Below, piece after piece: positions 5,531 to 64,000 of a stretch of DNA of 64,000 nt (the stretch's first letter is position 1; the number at the start of each line of letters is the position of its first letter). Position numbers and translations under genes: made by a program. The DNA lies in contig OX597814.1 of NCBI GenBank assembly GCA_951406725.2, positions 200,136,001 through 200,200,000 of the forward strand, read 5' to 3'. This DNA is from Octopus vulgaris (taxonomy: Eukaryota). Under the pieces are notes generated by a model that saw nothing but the letters and a program-made list of their open reading frames with translations, had not been told where the DNA came from and did not search any database.

Positions 5531-5880
5531 TGGAAGGTTTGGAGATGATGTACAGGTATTATATATTAGAAGAAATGAGGTAATCAGAAAATTGGATGGT
5601 TTATATTTACAGATATTTATTTATATATTACATTTTTTACATATATATCACATTTTTTACATATATATCATATCATTTAGATCATTAGCGCTTTCTCCCA
5701 TTCTAGTGGGGTTTTCAAATAAAAAATCTTTGATTTGAAAACCCCACTAGAAAACCCCACTAGAATGGGAGAAAGCGCTAATGATCTAAATGATAAGATA
5801 TATATGTAAAAAATGTAATATATAAATAAATATCTGTAAATATAAACCATCCGATCTTCTGATTACCTCATTTCTTCTAA
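5531..5880. mobile_element. Fold-back (inverted) PLE-like remnant in a (TA)n array
   Basis: Arms ~5566-5720 and ~5733-5880 are reverse complements (small internal duplications in each arm); (TA)n on both sides. Confidence 0.65.
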
Positions 5881-5959
5881 AATATATATATATATATACA
5901 CACACACACATATGTACATACATATATACGGGCACATATATGTATGTAAAAAAAAAAAA

Positions 5960-6718: not shown

Positions 6719-7252
6719 ATACACACACACACACATATTTATATCCAGGATTAATAATCAAGCCAAAATGACATACATGCAACAGTCTATGAAAGCAGTA
6801 GTTCCATATAAATATAGACTCAAACCAGAACAACCTGTCTTATACCATCGAGGAAAGTGGGCATAACACTATGAGGACAATATATAAACACACACACGCA
6901 CGCACACACACACACACACACACAAGCATGCACGCACACACACACACACCAGGTGCCAGGTGTATTTGAGGATACTTTATTATCAGTATATTTACTCTCT
7001 TCAAACTGATTGAAAGATTTTATTTCTCTCTCAGATGTGCAATGACAGATAAAATGCTAATACACTGAACGAAAAGACAAGCAGTCATTGTTACCATATG
7101 TGCAGAGTGCAGTGATTTAGAAATTGCCAGCTTTCTAAATGTTATAAGAACTTTTGTACACAAAGTTCAGGTGGAATCGGAAATGTCTGGGAGGAATGTT
7201 TTAACTGTACCATGCAACAAAGAAAAAAATAACAAAAAACAAGAAAACATTC

Positions 7253-7408
7253 AGGTGTGGCTGTGTGGTAAGAAGTTTGCTTATCAACTACATGGTTCCA
7301 GGTTCAATCCCACTGCATGGCACCTTGGGCAATTGTCTTCTACTATAGCCTCAGGCCAGAGGAAACCTTGTGAGTAGATTTGCTTGACGGAAAATAAAAA
7401 AGCCTATC

Positions 7409-8115: not shown

Positions 8116-8439
8116 TTATTTAGATTCGATGGATATTTGTCCTCTTCTTGTTTGTTGTTAACACAATTTTTCGGCTGATATACCCTCCAGCCTTCTTCAG
8201 GTGTCTTCAGCATATGGTGTAGTGGTTAAGAGTGCTGGCTACTAACACCAAGATTCCAAGTTCGATTCCAAGCAGTGACCTGAACAATAATAATAATAAT
8301 CATAATAATAATATTGAAAAATACCTTAGGAATGAGAACCCAGATTTGAAATTTCCCCAAGACACCTGAAGAAAGCTGGAGGGTATATCAGCTAAAACAT
8401 TGTGTTAACAACAAACAAGATGAGGACAAATATCCATCA
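8116..8439 (+). mobile_element. SINE family C with inverted 5' tail copy
   Basis: Inverted tail 8116-8207 (minus strand gacac CTGAAGA a GGCTG..CAGCC GAAA), then head, (TAA)n and forward tail with decayed HHR at 8361-8406. Confidence 0.8.
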
Positions 8440-8792
8440 CAGAACCAAAAGCAAACATATTTTCACTGAAGATTGGGAAAGAAAAATCAGCCAACATGAT
8501 GGTGGTGTTTTTTTACAACTATTATGCGATGTCAAAGCAAGAAGACAGGACACACTCACATACAGATGTGTGTGTGTGTGCACATGTGTGTGTGTGCACA
8601 TGTGTGTACACATGACAAGCTTCTTTCAGTGTTTCACTCTGACAAATCTTTTCACAAAGCTTTGGTCACTTGGGGCTATAACAGAAGAAAGTTGATCAGT
8701 GTGTCACACAATGGGGTTGAACCAGGAACCCTGGGATTGAGAAGCAAACTTTTTACCACATGACAACTGACATCATCTTCATAATATATATA

Positions 8793-9197
8793 TAATGTGG
8801 GTGGCTAATTTGCAATTTTACAACCTAAAGGCAGGAATATATACATTGATAAAATAAACAAGGGCATTATTAAGCACCAGTATTGCTAGAAATAAGAGTC
8901 AAAACAACTCAATAGCCAACAAAAGCACTATCTTAATGAGCTGATTCCATAGGGAGCACTATCTCCAAAGGGAGACAAGCTCCTTATGGTCGTAAATACA
9001 ACCGGATCATCGATGATTTTGTGTTTCGATTCTTAATGCTTCTTAAGGCTTATCAGTGGCTCTCACCATGCCTGGGGTTAAAATCATCTCGCCTTGTAAG
9101 CTCATGAGATTTCCATGGGGATCGTATGCTGATTTCCTAAATGGTAAAAGTGAAAATTATAAATAATGTAGGTGGCTAATTTGCAATTTTACAACCT
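8793..9197 (-). mobile_element. (TA)-flanked ~370-bp element with 35-bp terminal direct repeat and degenerate HHR-like motif
   Basis: taatgt(g/a)ggtggctaatttgcaattttacaaccta at ~8793 and ~9163; minus-strand CTGATAA..GAAAC at ~9052-9019; hairpin 8947-8988. Confidence 0.55.
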
Positions 9198-9213
9198 ATA
9201 TATGCGTGTGTGC

Positions 9214-9258
<45 letters not shown>

Positions 9259-9262
<4 letters not shown>

Positions 9263-9661
9263 TTAATAAATTTTAGGGTAGCAAAAAATTCTAGAAAAAT
9301 TCTCCGCTACCAGCAGTCAAGTGAGAAGGAAAAAATAGTCAATAGACTATATAATATACATTCAAACATATAAGGGACGGCCATAATAGGACATCTGATT
9401 CACTAGAAAGAGCAGCCAAACTCCAAACCACTAATAGTTGTAATTCTGAAATGGAAAGAGAAATAAAAACGTTTACCCTCTCCTTTCTGGACTATGACTA
9501 GTTTCGGCAATCTTTTGTAAATAAATTAATTTAATTAATTTATTTACCACTGGCGTTGCCTCGTCAGCAGAAAAGCCAAGGACTAACGTATATCCACGAG
9601 GCGATGATAAACATGCAACGAGTTTATATGCTATAAATTTTCAAAAATTTTTCAAAAATTT
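9259..9661 (-). mobile_element. (TA)n-embedded non-autonomous PLE-like element carrying a hammerhead
   Basis: Unique 400-bp block between two (TA)n arrays; contains HHR 9482-9575 and the shared motif tttggctgctctttctag; minus-strand end gctaccctaaaatttattaattaa. Confidence 0.65.
9482..9575 (-). ncRNA. Type I hammerhead ribozyme (complete)
   Basis: Minus strand: stem I CUUUUCUG/CAGAAAGG (8 bp, one G-U), core CUGACGA, stem II GGCAA/UUGCC capped by a 14-bp AU hairpin, GAAA, stem III ACUA-GUCA-UAGU, cleavage triplet GUC (cut between 9490 and 9489). Confidence 0.85.
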
Positions 9662-9859
9662 GTATATATATATATATATATATATTACTATTTTAGTCAT
9701 ACTGAAGGACAAGCATGAAGGATTTAGCCAAACAAATCGTTCTCTTGCCTATTTCTTTTTCAGTTGGTTCTTATTCTATCGTATCATTTTGCTAATACAT
9801 TGACTTATGGAGGTGTAAACAAACCAACATTGGTTGTCAAGTACTAAGAAGACAGGCAC

Positions 9860-10375: not shown

Positions 10376-10377
<2 letters not shown>

Positions 10378-10636
10378 TAATTATAATAAAGGGTTAATTG
10401 CAACAAGTTGCTCAAAACCACATACCGAAAATATTAGAAATGGCAGCCAAATAGGTCACCATTTCTCCTACTAGTAAAAAAGTCTCCACAAACAAACAGA
10501 TGGGTTGCAAATTCTGTTTGTTTGTGGAGACTTTTTACTAGTAGGAGAAATGGTGACCTATTTGGCTGCCATTTCTAATATTTTCGGTATGTGGTTTTGA
10601 GCAACTTGTTGCAATTAACCCTTTATTATAATTAAT
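10376..10636. repeat. Near-perfect 125-bp inverted repeat, 12-nt loop, within a (TA)n-bounded PLE-like block (10372-10740)
   Basis: Arms 10376-10500 and 10513-10636 are reverse complements, with one homopolymer indel seen. Confidence 0.9.
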
Positions 10637-10763: not shown

Positions 10764-11597
10764 CATGGATAAATATATTCATGTATATTCACATATAGTT
10801 AAACACACATACATTTTGATGTCCATCCTATAGGATGTACAACAAAATGACCAGGATTTGAAGTTTTGCCAATCAGCAAAATTTCATTCCTTCAGGGAAT
10901 GTTTTGCTATTATTATCCTTAAATGTGTTGTAAACTATAAACTTTTTTTAACACACACACACACATATATATATATATCAATGAAACATTAAAACAAGTG
11001 ATATGCAATTTGCAGCCAGGATAAGCTGAATATGATCTGTTTGATGTACAGTGTGAACTTTCGAGATACCTTCCGGGCAGCTGCGTTGAGAAAGTTATTG
11101 CGTATTAAACGTATTGGAATTCACATGCTAGAGATAAAGGCTGTATTATGACTGTATTATGAACTTGTAATAAGAATAGATTATGTATTTGGGGCTATAT
11201 GGGAAATCCACAGGGCAGAGAGAGATTAAGACAGATTTAATTGTAAAGTAGCTAGATGATCAATTGAGGCTTTGCAAGTGAAATAATACAACACGAGGAT
11301 ATATGTCAAGCCGTATGACCCACACCAGCTGATGAAATGATAAAATATTGAACGTGTATTGAAAATTAATTATCTTGATGAGGTTGAGAATGTCAATCAC
11401 CATAGCTTGTTTGGCCTCTATTTTTATAAATATAGCTGTAGTTACTTAACATACACCAACTAGTCTCTCCTATAATTATACCGGTTCATTTTTTACAACT
11501 CTATCTTTTTAACAAAGTAATTCTTAAATGTCAGATATTATCATTTTGATCTAATTTTAAATGTCTTCTGAGTTTTTCTTTATTATTATTATTATTA

Positions 11598-33849: not shown

Positions 33850-34065
33850 GGCATATAGTGTAATGATTAAGGGCATGGGCTACTAAACCAAAGATTGCGA
33901 GTTCAATTCCAGGCAGTGCTTTGAATAAATAATGATAATGATAATATTATCAGAAAATAGCTTAGGAATGAGAACCCAGGGTTGGGTTCAAAATTCTACA
34001 GCTGAACTGTTGTGGTGACAGTGAACAAGATGAGGACACATATCTGTCCAATGTAAATAATGTAT
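33850..34065 (+). mobile_element. Degenerate SINE family C (HHR segment lost)
   Basis: Head, (TAA)-like linker, cttaggaatgagaacccagg and aacaagatgaggac..aatgtaaataatgta are retained. Confidence 0.7.
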
Positions 34066-44998: not shown

Positions 44999-45120
44999 AC
45001 AGTTCTATATTTAAGAGATGAGGAATTATGTATATTATTTACATTTGACGGGCATGTGGCATAGTGGTTAAGAGTGCGGACTACTAACCCCAAAATTCCA
45101 AGTTCAATTCCAGGAAGTCA

Positions 45121-45165
<45 letters not shown>

Positions 45166-45387
45166 TGATGATAATAATGATCATGATGATAATAATAATA
45201 ATAATAATGATAACAACAACATCAAAAAATACCTTAGGAATGAGAACCCAGGTTTGAAATTTTCCCAAGACACCTAATGAAGAAACGTGTTAACAACAAA
45301 CAAGATGAGGATAAATATCCGTCTGAAATGGTGTGTTAACAACAAACAAGATGAGGACAAATATCAAATCAAATGTAAATAATATAA
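44999..45387 (+). mobile_element. SINE family C with short inverted 5' tail copy
   Basis: 45000-45051 is the reverse complement of the family 3' terminus; head from ~45050; stem II of HHR deleted; flanked by aagatatttatttcttta / aaggtatttatttcttta (TSD-like). Confidence 0.8.
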
Positions 45388-53409: not shown

Positions 53410-54522
53410 GTGGTCCAGTGTAGCTTATCATATTTAATGTCCTACAGTGAAGAATTCCGGGTAGAGGTTGGGGTCCACCAAGGTTCAGTCCTCAGTCCCC
53501 TCCTATTTATCATAGTCCTCCAGGCAATAACGGAGGAATTCAAGACAGGTTGCCCCTGGGAGCTCCTCTATGCTGATGACCTTGCTCTAATTGCTGAGTC
53601 ACTATCAGAACTGGAGGAGAAGTTTCAGGTGTGGAAACAAGGATTAGAATCGAAGGGCCTTAGAATTAACCTAGCCAAAACCAAAGTCCTAATAAGTAGG
53701 AAGGTAGATCAATCACAAACGCCTTCAGGTAGATGGCCCTGCTCGATCTGTAAAAAAGGTGTAGGTAGAAACTCTATAAGATGCACCAAGTGTAAGCTAT
53801 GGACACATAAGAGGTGCAGCAATGTCAAAGGAAGGCTAACTAGGAAAATAGTTTTTGTCTGTGGCAAATGCTCAGGAGCAATAAACACTGGAAATGTGCA
53901 GAGACCAACTTCTGCCACGTTCCAGGAAGACAAACTAGAAGTAGTTGATAGCTTCCGCTACCTAGGAGACCAAGTCAGTAGCGGGGGTGGGTGTGCTGAA
54001 AGTGTAACTGCTAGAGTAAGAATAGCCTGGGCAAAGTTTAGAGAGCTCTTACCCCTGCTGGTGACAAAAGGCCTCTCGCTCAGAGTAAAAGGCAGACTGT
54101 ATGATGCATGTGTACGTACAGCCATGCTACATGGTAGTGAAACATGGGCCGTGACTGCTGAGGATATGCGTAAGCTCGCAAGAAATGAAGCCAGTATGCT
54201 CCGATGGATGTGTAATGTCAGTGTTCATAATCGTCAGAGTGTAAGTTCCTTGAGAGAAAAGTTGAACCTAAGAAGCGTCAGTTGTGGTGTGCAAGAGAGA
54301 CGGCTGCGCTGGTATGGTCATGTGACGAGAAAGGCTGAAGATAGTTGTGTGCAAAAGTGCTACACCCTAGCAGTTGAGGGAACCTGTGGAAGAGGTAGAC
54401 CCAGGAAAACCTGGGACGAGGTGGTGAAGCACGACCTTCGAACTTTAGGTCTCACTAAGGAAATGTCTAGAGACCGAGACCTATGGAAGTATGCTGTGCG
54501 TGAGAAGACCCGGCAAGACTAG
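53410..54522 (+). CDS. RTE LINE ORF C-terminal part: reverse transcriptase (5'-truncated) with embedded PHD-like finger
   Basis: GVHQGSVLSPLLF, LLYADD, FRYLG, RRLRWYGHV, GRGRPRKTW; homology starts at ~53443, so the listed start codon is probably flank-derived. Confidence 0.9.
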   Translation: MVQCSLSYLMSYSEEFRVEVGVHQGSVLSPLLFIIVLQAITEEFKTGCPWELLYADDLALIAESLSELEEKFQVWKQGLESKGLRINLAKTKVLISRKVDQSQTPSGRWPCSICKKGVGRNSIRCTKCKLWTHKRCSNVKGRLTRKIVFVCGKCSGAINTGNVQRPTSATFQEDKLEVVDSFRYLGDQVSSGGGCAESVTARVRIAWAKFRELLPLLVTKGLSLRVKGRLYDACVRTAMLHGSETWAVTAEDMRKLARNEASMLRWMCNVSVHNRQSVSSLREKLNLRSVSCGVQERRLRWYGHVTRKAEDSCVQKCYTLAVEGTCGRGRPRKTWDEVVKHDLRTLGLTKEMSRDRDLWKYAVREKTRQD

Positions 54523-56938
54523 TCAGGCCATAACCCGTGGCCCCTACCTGGGACGTAGTCAGTCCTCCTGTGCATACCTTCCTTCTTGTGACACTTATGA
54601 AGACCTGTTGAGGCAAGTGAAAATCAAATCAAAACAAATCAAAATAGATGAACATCAGTGGAATTGTATTCTTTGTGGTACCAGTGCCGGTGGCACACAA
54701 GAAAACCACCCAAACGTGGCCGTAGCCAGTACCGCATCGACTGGCCTCCGTGCTGTGGGCACAACAAACACCATCCGATCGTGGCCGTTCGCCAGCCTCA
54801 TCTGGCACCTGTGTCGGTGGCACATAAAAACACCATCCGAAGACCCGGCGACGTAGTCAGTCCACCTGTGCATACCTTCCCTCTTATGACACTTGTGAAG
54901 ACCTGTTGAGGCAAGTGTGTGACACTTGCGAAGACCTGTTGAGGCAAGTGTGTGACACTTGTGAAGACCTGTTGAGGCAGAGGCAAGTGTGTGACACTTG
55001 TGGAGACCTGTTGAGGCAAGTGTGTGACCCTTGTGAAGACCTGTTGAGGCAAGTGAAAATCAAATCAAACCAAATCAAAATAGATGAACATCAATGGAAT
55101 TTGTATCTTTGTGGTTCCAGTACCGGTGGCACACAAGAAAACCATCCGAACGTGGCCGTAGCCAGTACCGCATCGACTGGCCTCCGTGCTGTGGGCACAA
55201 CAAACACCATCTGATCGTGGCCGTTCGCCAGCCTCATCTGGCACCTGTGTCGGTGGCACATAAAAACACCATCCGAAGACCCGGCGACGTAGTCAGTCCA
55301 CCTGTGCATACCTTCCCTCTTATGACACTTGTGAAGACCTGTTGAGGCAAGTGTGTGACACTTGTGAAGACCTGTTGAGGCAGAGGCAAGTGTGTGACAC
55401 TTTGTGAAGACCTGTTGAGGCAGAGGCAAGTGTGTGACACTTGTGGAGAACTGTTGAGGCAAGTGTGTGACACTTGTGAAGACCTGTTGAGACAAGTGAA
55501 AATCAAACCAAACTTGTGAAGACCTGTTGAGGCAAGTGAAAATCAAACCAAATCAAAATAGATGAACATCAATGGAATTTGTATCTTTGTGGTTCCAGTT
55601 CCGGTGGCACACAAGAAAACCATCCGGTTCGCCAGCCTCATCTGGCACCTGTGTCGGTGGCACATAAAAACACCATCCGAAGACCCGGCGACGTAGTCAG
55701 TCCACCTGTGCATACCTTCCTACTTATGACACTTGTGAAGACCTGTTGAGGCAAGTGTGTGACACTTGTGTAGACCTGTTGAGGCAAGTGAAAATCAAAA
55801 TCAAAATCAAATCAAATCAAATCAAACCAAATCAAAATAGATGAACATCAATGGAATTTGTATCTTTGTGGTACCAGTACCGGTGGCACACAAGAAAACC
55901 ATCCGAACGTGGCCGTAGCCAGTACCGCATCGACTGGCCTCTGTGATGTGGGCACATAACAAACACCATCCGATCGTGGCCGTCCGCCAGCCTCATCTGG
56001 CACCTGTGTCGGTGGCACATAAAAACACCAACCGAAGACCCGGCAAGACTAGTCAGGCCATAACCCATGGCCCCTACTTGGGACGTAGTCAGTCCACCTG
56101 TGCATACCTTCCTTCCTTCTTGTGACACTTGTGAAGACCTGTTGAGGCAAGTGAAAATCAATCAAATCAAATCAAAATAGATGAACATCAATGGAATTTG
56201 TATCTTGTGGTACCAGTGCCGGTGGCACACAAGAAAACCATCCGAACGTGGCCGTAGCCAGTACCGCATCGACTGGCCTCCGTGCTGTGGGCACGCAACA
56301 AACACCATCCGATCGTGGCCGTTCGCCAGCCTCATCTGGCACCTGTGTCGGTGGCACATAAAAACACCATCCGAAGACCCGGCAAGACTAGTCAGGCCAT
56401 AACCCGTGGCCCCTACCTGGGACGTAGTCAGTCCACCTGTGCATACCTTCCTTCTTGTGACACTTGTGAAGACCTGTTGAGGCAAGTGAAAATCAAATCA
56501 AATCTAAACAAATCAAAATAGATGAACATCAATGGAATTTGTATCTTTGTGGTACCAGTGCCGGTGGCACACAAGAAAATCATCCGAACGTGGCCGTAGC
56601 CAGTACCGCATAGACTGGCCTCCGTGCTTTGGGGACGTAACAAACACCATTCGATCGTGGCCGTCCGCCAGCCTCATCTGGCACCTGTGTCGGTGGCACA
56701 TAAAAACACCATCCGAGCGTGGCCGTCTGCCAGCCTCGTCTGGCACCTGTGTCGGTGGCACATAAAATCACCCACTACACTCTCGGAGTGGTTGGCGTTA
56801 GGAAGGGCATCCAGCTGTAGAAACACTGCCAGATCTGACTGGCCTGGTGCAGCCTTCGGGCTCCCCAGACCCCAGTTGAACCGTCCAACCCATGCTAGCA
56901 TGGAAAACGGACGCTAAATGATGATGATGATGATGATG
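53443..56938 (+). mobile_element. Young 5'-truncated RTE-clade LINE with tandemly expanded 3' UTR
   Basis: Uninterrupted RT ORF end, six repeat units in the UTR, terminal aggaagggcatccagctgtagaaac domain and (GAT)n tail. Confidence 0.9.
54504..56714 (+). repeat. Six tandem 335-436-bp units with nested 31-37-bp and (AAATC)n subrepeats
   Basis: Unit starts (gaagacccggc) at 54504, 54839, 55275, 55679, 56034, 56373. Confidence 0.9.
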
Positions 56939-62429: not shown

Positions 62430-63518
62430 CCCTTTCGTTACTATATTTCTGACCAAAATACACCCCTCATGTGTTTCAATTAATTTCTAACGTAATCATA
62501 AATTTAGTCTGGTTTCATTAAACAACCATAACTTTTTTATTTATCAATATATTAACGTGAATTTTGGAAGATAATTTAATGAAATGTTCTCAACCAATTC
62601 TATACTATAATTTTTGTCACAAAGTGACTCTAATTGCAGGTAGATACAGGTAAATTCAACAAAATATAAAATTATTAAAATTTTGTTCAAACATTGCTAT
62701 AGAAAATGGGTTATTAGCTAATATTCAGTTGGGTATACAACAAAATTTTACGATAGAATTTGTTATTCTGGATAACTTTCTGATACCCATAATAATATTT
62801 ATGGCAAAATAGTCTTAATTTCATTTAAGGTTGTGGGAAACCACTAACTATCCTTTCTTTTGCTTTGTTTACATTAAGCATAACGGTTCGTTTCCGCCGT
62901 AATGATTTCAAATAGGCTCATTCGAAAAAGTAAAAAGAAATAGTCTAAGGCTTTACTCTCCTGGGAAAGTCTGTGGCTTGGTCCAGTTTCTTCAGAAAAA
63001 TCACCGAAAGAAACAGTTTTTAAATTTTCACTCCATTCAGGTGCCAATTCATTTTCTTTATCGCTGTCGGAGCTCTCGGATTCACTGTTTTCACTTTCGG
63101 AAAATGAAACATCAGATCCATTATCAAATACCACGTGCTTTTTTTTTTTCAGTCATAGAGTTAGATTTATCAAGGTCTTCAGTAGAAAATCCTTTGAATT
63201 CTGACTCGCTGCTTGATATAATGAAATTCGTATCCATTTTTTGTCAGAATTACAAATTTTGAAAACACAATAGGAACAAATTTCTGAAAAAAAATCTCCC
63301 AAAATTCACGTAATTAAAATTACACTTTGATTCTTGTACAAAACTGTAGTTGAACTGTTTACGAAATATAATACGTGTTTTCACGAATGTACTAAAGAAA
63401 TTTGCTCTGATATTCTCATTTAAATATGAATAGGTAAATATGGGCGGGTTTGGACGGTTTGGTCCACATTAACCAAAATTTTTTTCGGGCGGCTTTGGGC
63501 GGTTTGGTAACGAAAGGG
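62430..63518 (-). mobile_element. Internally deleted piggyBac transposon
   Basis: TTAA TSD at 62426 and 63519, 12-bp TIR ccctttcgttac / gtaacgaaaggg, subterminal ggcggtttgg repeats; interrupts cagttctatatttaa|gagatgagg of a family C tail. Confidence 0.9.
62874..63236 (-). pseudogene. piggyBac transposase N-terminal remnant
   Basis: Acidic N-terminus then W..F.EETGP..ALDYFFLLF...IITAETNRYA (PGBD4-type motif); frameshift at a poly-A run; catalytic core deleted. Confidence 0.75.
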
Positions 63519-63522
63519 TTAA

Positions 63523-64000
63523 GAGATGAGGAACTATTTACATTATTTACATTTGATGACTATTTGTCTTCATCTAGTTTGTTGTTAACATGTATTGGCT
63601 GATATACCCTCCAGCCTTCACCAGGTGTATTGGGGAAATTTCAGACCTGGGTTCTCATTCCTAAGGTATTTTTCTATATCATTATTATTATTATTATTAC
63701 TATTATTATTATTCAGATCACTGCCTGGAATCAAACTCAGAATCTTGGGGCTAGTAGCCTGTGCTCTTAACAACTACACCAAAAGTCTTTCTAAACCTCT
63801 TGTATCCTGTTTTCACTCAGGTTACCATACATTCACCTCCACGGGCATATGGCATAGTGGTTAAGAGCACGGGCTACTAACCCCAAGATTCTGAGTTCGA
63901 TTCCAGGCAGTGACCTGAATAATAAAAATAATAACAACAACAACATCGAAAAATACTTTAGGAATGAGAACCCAGGTTTGAAATTTCCCCAAGACACCTG
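63523..64000. mobile_element. Head-to-head pair of family C SINEs (minus 63523-63783, plus 63843 to window end)
   Basis: Full inverted copy (its last 15 nt lie at 62415-62429), ~55-bp spacer, then a forward copy that runs off the window at the HHR (..gacacctg). Confidence 0.85.

Follow-up and report, generated by a model that had tools for sequence, protein, structure and literature searches.

A complete type I hammerhead ribozyme in a multi-copy octopus repeat, likely the 3′ end of a truncated Penelope-like element

Results

A ribozyme-bearing repeat between (TA)n runs

The window, by which we mean the whole 64-kb stretch of octopus DNA analysed here, is AT-rich and carries many microsatellites and interspersed repeats. 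Within it, a repeat of 33% GC takes up precisely the space between two (TA)n runs; on its minus strand lies a complete hammerhead ribozyme (Table 1), with 173 nt of repeat before the predicted cut site and ~229 nt after it. The repeat is present as a single copy in the 64-kb window, with no tandem copy there, and its locus shows no pLTR and no tandem or inverted 5′ structure. It contains no long open reading frame (ORF) and gave no Pfam match, its four short frames included; no reverse transcriptase (RT) or GIY-YIG ORF linked to it lies within the window, an absence expected for a truncated copy. The (TA)n insertion context was seen at this one locus, and such flanks are frequent, 9 of the 29 gaps between TA runs in the window being 200–600 nt long.

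An initial annotation of this DNA had described the ribozyme as antisense to a host gene. We compared 288 reading frames with Pfam, namely 284 of at least 52 amino acids (with a complexity filter) and 4 shorter ones in the element, a scan that reaches exons of at least 52 codons. A single frame matched, a LINE reverse transcriptase 44 kb from the ribozyme; with no host gene found among the 288 frames (287 gave no match at all), the antisense arrangement is unsupported rather than disproved. Also considered was a 31-nt GT…AG stretch at 9476–9446, rejected as too short for an ordinary intron.

Table 1. Features of the ribozyme-bearing repeat and its flanks (window coordinates; paired strands separated by a slash)
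Feature	Position	Strand	Basis or remark
Multi-copy repeat with ribozyme; likely 3′ end of a 5′-truncated Penelope-like element	9260..9662	-	403 bp
(TA)n run, 3′ side of the element; likely target site	9217..9259	.	sequence
(TA)n run, 5′ side of the element; likely target site	9663..9685	.	sequence
Stem I, 8 bp (one U-G)	9575-9568 / 9489-9482	-	pairing check; open-ended
Core C3-A9	9567-9561	-	consensus match; no variant among the 40 of 67 variants listed for relatives
Stem II, 5 bp, G10.1-C11.1 first	9560-9556 / 9510-9506	-	pairing check
Stem II internal loop, 8x6	5′ side 9548..9555	-	pairing check
AU-rich stem II extension, 14 bp, 3-nt loop	9547-9534 / 9530-9517	-	94% AT
Core G12-A15.1	9505-9502	-	consensus match; together with the 3′ strand of stem II, 9502-9510
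Stem III, 4 bp + 4-nt loop	9502-9499 / 9494-9491	-	pairing check; whole region 9491..9502
Predicted cleavage site after C17 of GUC	9490/9489	-	position from the hammerhead consensus

The motif is complete and is not a chance arrangement

Hammerhead positions (C3, A9, C17 and so on) are numbered here by the standard scheme. The motif at 9575–9482 (−) is a complete type I hammerhead, predicted to cleave itself: the CUGANGA and GAAA core, U16.1, H17 and the GUC triplet are all present, and every pair of the three stems was checked, confirming the annotated architecture of 8, 5, 14 and 4 bp with an internal loop. Its stem II had rightly been singled out as unusually long and AU-rich, the insert between the two stem II strands measuring 45 nt.

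We ran a hammerhead descriptor on the real window and on 3,050 dinucleotide-preserving shuffles of the 64-kb window. With stems of at least 8/5/4 bp, 0 of the 3,050 shuffles contained the motif, against 1 at stems of at least 6/4/3 and 20 at stems of at least 4/4/3, while the unshuffled window gives this site and no other at all three settings. The Rfam search that had been proposed as a check gave no hammerhead match, either for the whole window or locally, at gathering score or at E up to 10. Probably the 45-nt stem II insert defeats the Rfam hammerhead models, a limit of the library rather than the lack of a defining feature. This silence of Rfam is what could be said for a mere chance arrangement of letters; the shuffles, together with core and stems that vary less than the flank among relatives (listed variants affect none of the 13 core positions and 3 of the 32 in stems, versus 11 of the 39 upstream ones; Fisher p 0.016), reduce that explanation to a vanishingly small probability.

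A multi-copy family of relatives

As relatives we took contigs at least 80% alike in four sequencing runs (X1, X2, X6 and X10) from three organisms (A, A, B and C). The four runs hold 969, 38, 1,091 and 622 related contigs, and contig counts and depth do not give genomic copy number. The repeat belongs to a multi-copy family in three organisms, and part of it is present in 20 of 24 listed runs, from four organisms. The variants considered are those listed for the relatives, comprising 40 of 67 variants, 24 of 363 loose ends and 11 indels. None of the listed runs is on record as RNA and all matches are contigs, which cannot show RNA ends; X2, taken for RNA by guess alone, served solely to supply relatives. 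No pile-up of contig ends is listed in the four runs. Viral contigs yielded 0 relatives for two patterns. Seven metagenome contigs matching a 17-base pattern were dismissed as chance, none having the exact core upstream and none a stem II arm.

Several of the relatives' differences respect the ribozyme's structure. Stem I changes at 9483 and 9486 preserve pairing; another at 9572 needs a partner change at 9485, and two loose ends show the 9485 change, with linkage between the two not seen. The loose ends also indicate that the ribozyme persists in relatives on the far side of an indel near 9478. Contig cover is lower over the 5′ part than over the 3′ tail, in X1 for instance 11 contigs at 9588 against 84 at 9399; this lower 5′ cover may be what is expected for a 5′-truncated Penelope-like element (PLE), or may reflect divergence between subfamilies. 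Five joints are listed, none of them head-to-tail; in X6, two joints switch strand, each in a single contig and one of them within the hairpin, which would be as expected for PLE ends.

One loose end in X6, at window position 9479, comes from a relative that seems to begin about one base past the cut site, beside a microsatellite, a hint that cleaved RNA can serve as template, albeit probably from one contig. A steep fall in X1 depth, from 113,745 (9461–9474) to 5,244 (9489–9502), might be read as copies beginning at the cut; this was rejected, because depth is no copy number, X6 shows no such fall and loose ends continue through the ribozyme.

The window copy carries a private change in stem III

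We compared stem III among the relatives. On the plus strand, 77 contigs have C at 9497, where the window has A, and 77 have A at 9498, where the window has C. The relatives' letter accounts for 100% of depth at 9498 in X1, X2 and X10 and at 9497 in X6, and two loose ends (X2 and X10) directly show the relatives' letters at both positions; the window's letter pair occurs in no covering contig of the four runs. From the contigs, the change appears to be private to the window copy, whether by mutation or by assembly error. This copy further differs from nearly all contigs at 9315, 9378, 9399 and 9588, and the closest related pieces (X2 records 18, 21 and 23) are ~98% alike to it. The relatives' stem III and loop have the same 12-nt length as in the window copy but form a perfect palindrome, which the two-letter change breaks; the same change is the reason why UAGUC occurs twice in the window copy.

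The predicted effects of this change were assessed with an equilibrium folding model that leaves aside tertiary contacts, Mg2+ and co-transcriptional folding. For the relatives' 12-mer the model gives −15.9 kcal/mol for a 12-bp homoduplex and +0.4 kcal/mol for a lone hairpin; for the window copy's 12-mer the corresponding values are −5.0 and −0.7 kcal/mol. In the window copy, loop III is predicted to misfold onto core positions U4–C7 (pair probability ~0.6), and the active fold is not favoured: its predicted share is 0.044 for 94–121 nt, rises to 0.13 when pairs between loop III and the core are forbidden, and drops to 0.0002 or less with 181–398 nt of context. Because dimer pairing would be weakened and loop III would pair with the catalytic core, the change at 9497–9498 is likely to impair the window copy rather than improve it.

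The repeated UAGUC had been read differently in the initial annotation, as a local duplication by which a minimal ribozyme of the dimer type gained the ability to act as a monomer, antisense to a host gene. The repetition itself is real, and a minimal hammerhead with this hexamer, ACUAGU, has been published from Adineta vaga. The minimal palindromic form that the reading starts from does not hold up in this copy, for in the register that places C17 at 9496 there is no stem I, with 2 of 8 positions pairing and a closing G–A pair. Nor do the relatives bear out a conversion: they are equal in length and lack the repeat, which, on following the suggestion to look for it in paralogs, we found in none of the contigs covering 9497–9498 in four runs, and no gap of 5–6 nt at stem III is among the 11 indels listed (a short-stem subfamily might be clipped rather than gapped). 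With a predicted share of the active fold that remains below 0.001 in longer flanks and no host gene found in the Pfam-scanned frames, we regard the duplication scenario as highly improbable.

A variable AU-rich hairpin and a candidate pseudoknot

The AU-rich stem II hairpin characterises the family and varies in length. It is common to the relatives, with tips 2, 3, 8 or 9 nt shorter; the 8- and 9-nt tip gaps make up 978 of 3,365 depth units in X1, and one X6 contig skips 9514–9548 altogether while keeping both sides of the internal loop. The form that is 9 nt shorter is a perfect 22-nt palindrome, so that the long form looks like the product of a slippage duplication at the tip. Probably the ribozyme tolerates the hairpin as an appendage, which slippage lengthens and shortens.

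A candidate pseudoknot joins 9551–9555 with 9575–9579 (−) through 5 bp, 3 of them G–C, at a predicted −5.9 kcal/mol, and could be taken to dock stems I and II in a fast hammerhead active as a monomer, with the palindrome incidental; this would fit either a PLE or a retrozyme origin. None of the 10 positions involved has a variant among those listed, the contig that lacks the AU hairpin retains the loop strand, and the lower stem I extension that competes for these bases differs in two relatives; pseudoknots of this kind occur in about 40% of hammerheads (PMC3088659). Set against this, controls reach the same energy in 4,464 of 20,000 and 1,334 of 20,000 trials (7–22%), no covariation was seen among the relatives' listed variants, and in the window copy the 5′ bases concerned are predicted to be paired in an extended stem I. 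The pseudoknot is thus a weakly supported lead in modelled structure, and we hold a monomer-active ribozyme built around it to be an unlikely account of the family. What is still unusual here is the 45-nt stem II insert together with this weakly supported pseudoknot.

Discussion

Likely origin as the end of a Penelope-like element

The most likely reading is that the 403-bp repeat with its complete type I hammerhead is the 3′ end of a 5′-truncated, TA-targeting PLE, most like those of the Hydra clade. A link to PLEs had been proposed in the initial annotation and is still the best reading, resting on the (TA)n flanks, on a stem III that runs from AC to GU and on the palindromic stem III of the relatives; membership is inferred, because no RT or endonuclease ORF is linked to the repeat. 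In PMC8557442 (Craig et al. 2021), all 26 hammerhead rows of the Hydra clade show a stem III of 3–4 bp from AC to GU, 26 of 27 Hydra families insert at (TA)n, and in the families compared the hammerhead sits ~90–430 nt away from the 3′ end. The window motif likewise is of type I, has a 4-bp AC…GU stem III and sits within a few hundred nucleotides of the 3′ end, ~335 nt from it if the TA flank is taken to mark that end. Files S1–S2 of the same paper list Hydra-1_Obim, a Hydra-clade family of Octopus bimaculoides that lacks a pLTR; the repeat resembles it in its octopus host, in the (TA)n flanks typical of the clade and in showing no pLTR pair, while the window motif is a different sequence.

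Other features set the repeat apart from the Hydra rows of PMC8557442: 45 nt separate its stem II strands, compared with a loop 2 of 3–10 nt, its stem III region is 12 nt long rather than 9–10 nt, and, unlike Hydra-clade PLEs, the repeat has no linked ORF. Five short motifs of the ribozyme were not found in the PLE sequence supplement of PMC8557442, which speaks against a PLE, although line breaks there could hide a match. A long stem II has a precedent in the Selaginella PLE-X1 hammerheads, whose loop 2 spans about 30–35 nt in File S2; these belong to plant, rDNA-targeting, endonuclease-less elements of unrelated sequence.

Palindromic helices III are known in PLEs. Small ones are described for Aedes aegypti, Saccoglossus, Drosophila and rotifers, with 10-nt palindromes in Aedes and Saccoglossus, in Cervera and De la Pena 2014 (PMC4209133) and Perreault et al. 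2011 (PMC3088659, Fig. S8 legend, on Aedes repeats). The relatives' stem III and loop are likewise fully self-complementary, which suits dimer pairing, and occur as dispersed single copies; the window copy has lost this palindrome. The family differs from those hammerheads in the length of its palindrome, 12 nt as against up to 10 nt in the published alignment (PMC4209133), in having no extra base after A9 and in its long stem II.

On the PLE reading, RNA of the parent element would be cut after C17, so that tandem or read-through transcripts are processed. With a palindromic stem III, pairing between two copies would be much more favourable than the folding of one copy into a hairpin, so that RNAs with one motif would for the most part escape cleavage and act as templates. 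The element's endonuclease would nick (TA)n and the uncut RNA would be copied in with 5′ truncation, reverse transcription of the window copy having stopped 173 nt past the cut site. The window copy spans its own cut site and therefore came from uncut (or rejoined) RNA, which fits the view of uncut templates. Most PLE insertions are 5′-truncated; for an anole PLE, PMC11167929 reports uncut RNA as the main insertion substrate in vitro, with cleavage not required and no reads ending at the cleavage site. The dimer step would be the weakest part of this mechanism, as modelled, since a stem III of 4 bp can also be enough for action as a monomer.

The main rival sees the repeat as a non-autonomous unit with a hammerhead, either a solo non-LTR retrozyme or a SINE-like element, that is transcribed, cut, perhaps circularised and mobilised by PLE proteins. 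Metazoan non-LTR retrozymes (Cervera and De la Pena 2020, PMC7229834; Li et al. 2026, bioRxiv 10.64898/2026.07.22.740005) are short non-coding units of below 45% GC with one type I hammerhead, as is the repeat; its 403 bp and 33% GC come near the mussel retrozymes (350–390 bp), it has no ORF, solo monomers derived from PLE ends exist, and in invertebrate retrozymes helix III is stable and the hammerhead cleaves as a monomer. The repeat departs from them: it is not arrayed in tandem in the window, a test that a longer unit would slip past; none of the five listed joints runs head-to-tail; and contig cover varies greatly along its length. We consider such a unit unlikely; the two readings are not exclusive, because retrozymes derive from PLE ends.

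A bolder version of the PLE origin would make the family an octopus-wide, Rfam-invisible set of PLE-derived hammerheads of a new build, in which the motif could fold alone or in pairs through its 12-nt palindromic helix III, a pseudoknot links the internal loop of stem II to the strand before stem I, the AU hairpin is dispensable and many genomic copies start at the cut site. We give this combination a small chance. If copies do start at the cut site, cleaved RNA would be a real template in vivo and PLE hammerheads would gain a demonstrated role.

Novelty and significance

Hammerheads at PLE ends are already known, including ones with a full stem III and those of an octopus family. The ribozyme family described here seems undescribed in the literature searched, which did not extend to Repbase, Dfam and most subscription papers, and the window ribozyme is probably an impaired copy within an apparently unlisted family of known kind. 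As it stands, its significance is little. In giant squid, 235 type 1 hammerheads have been counted with Rfam, and, since the present family is missed by Rfam, Rfam-based counts of cephalopod ribozymes would be too low. Further background came from PMC7761336, PMC6765202 (citing Lunse et al. 2017) and PMC6962438. With its many copies that vary naturally in stems II and III, the family would be good material for comparing monomer and dimer cleavage and for asking whether insertions begin at the cut site.

Other features of the window

Elsewhere in the window, a repeat family represented at 8120–8440 has inverted ends around an (AAT)n tract, each end with a minimal hammerhead motif that lacks stem III. 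Its relatives lie at 1420–1726, 33851–34056, 45052–45378 and 63547–64000. The copy at 8200–8165 (−) passes a minimal descriptor; an intact core lies at 1646 (+), and decayed ones near 8365 and 63600. The head of these repeats we take to be tRNA-like, and the family looks like a SINE with PLE-type ends.

The matching LINE reverse transcriptase fragment, at 53410–54519, spans 370 codons with a PHD-like insert and is followed by a complex tandem repeat (54504–56900). We assume it to be RTE-like; its top identity, 84%, is with an Octopus vulgaris protein among the best 120 of 1,119 relatives, on which basis the host DNA can be described as octopus-like. Two further frames, 7069–7377 (+) and 62877–63152 (−), gave no Pfam match and to our eye resemble the N-terminal parts of DNA transposases. 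At 11329–11364 (+), exact halves of a hammerhead core flank a 4-bp AU stem II, with no stem I or III by descriptor, and this may be a chance or a decayed hammerhead motif.

Long inverted repeats at 5560–5886 and 10376–10636 sit between (TA)n runs and resemble inverted 5′-truncated PLE ends; no hammerhead was found in either. Beside the ribozyme-bearing repeat, a unit at 8787–9200 abuts a (TA)n run, carries a direct repeat of 36–41 nt at both ends and contains, at 9056–9050 and 9027–9024 (−), a decayed core resembling that of a hammerhead; it is possibly another PLE remnant.
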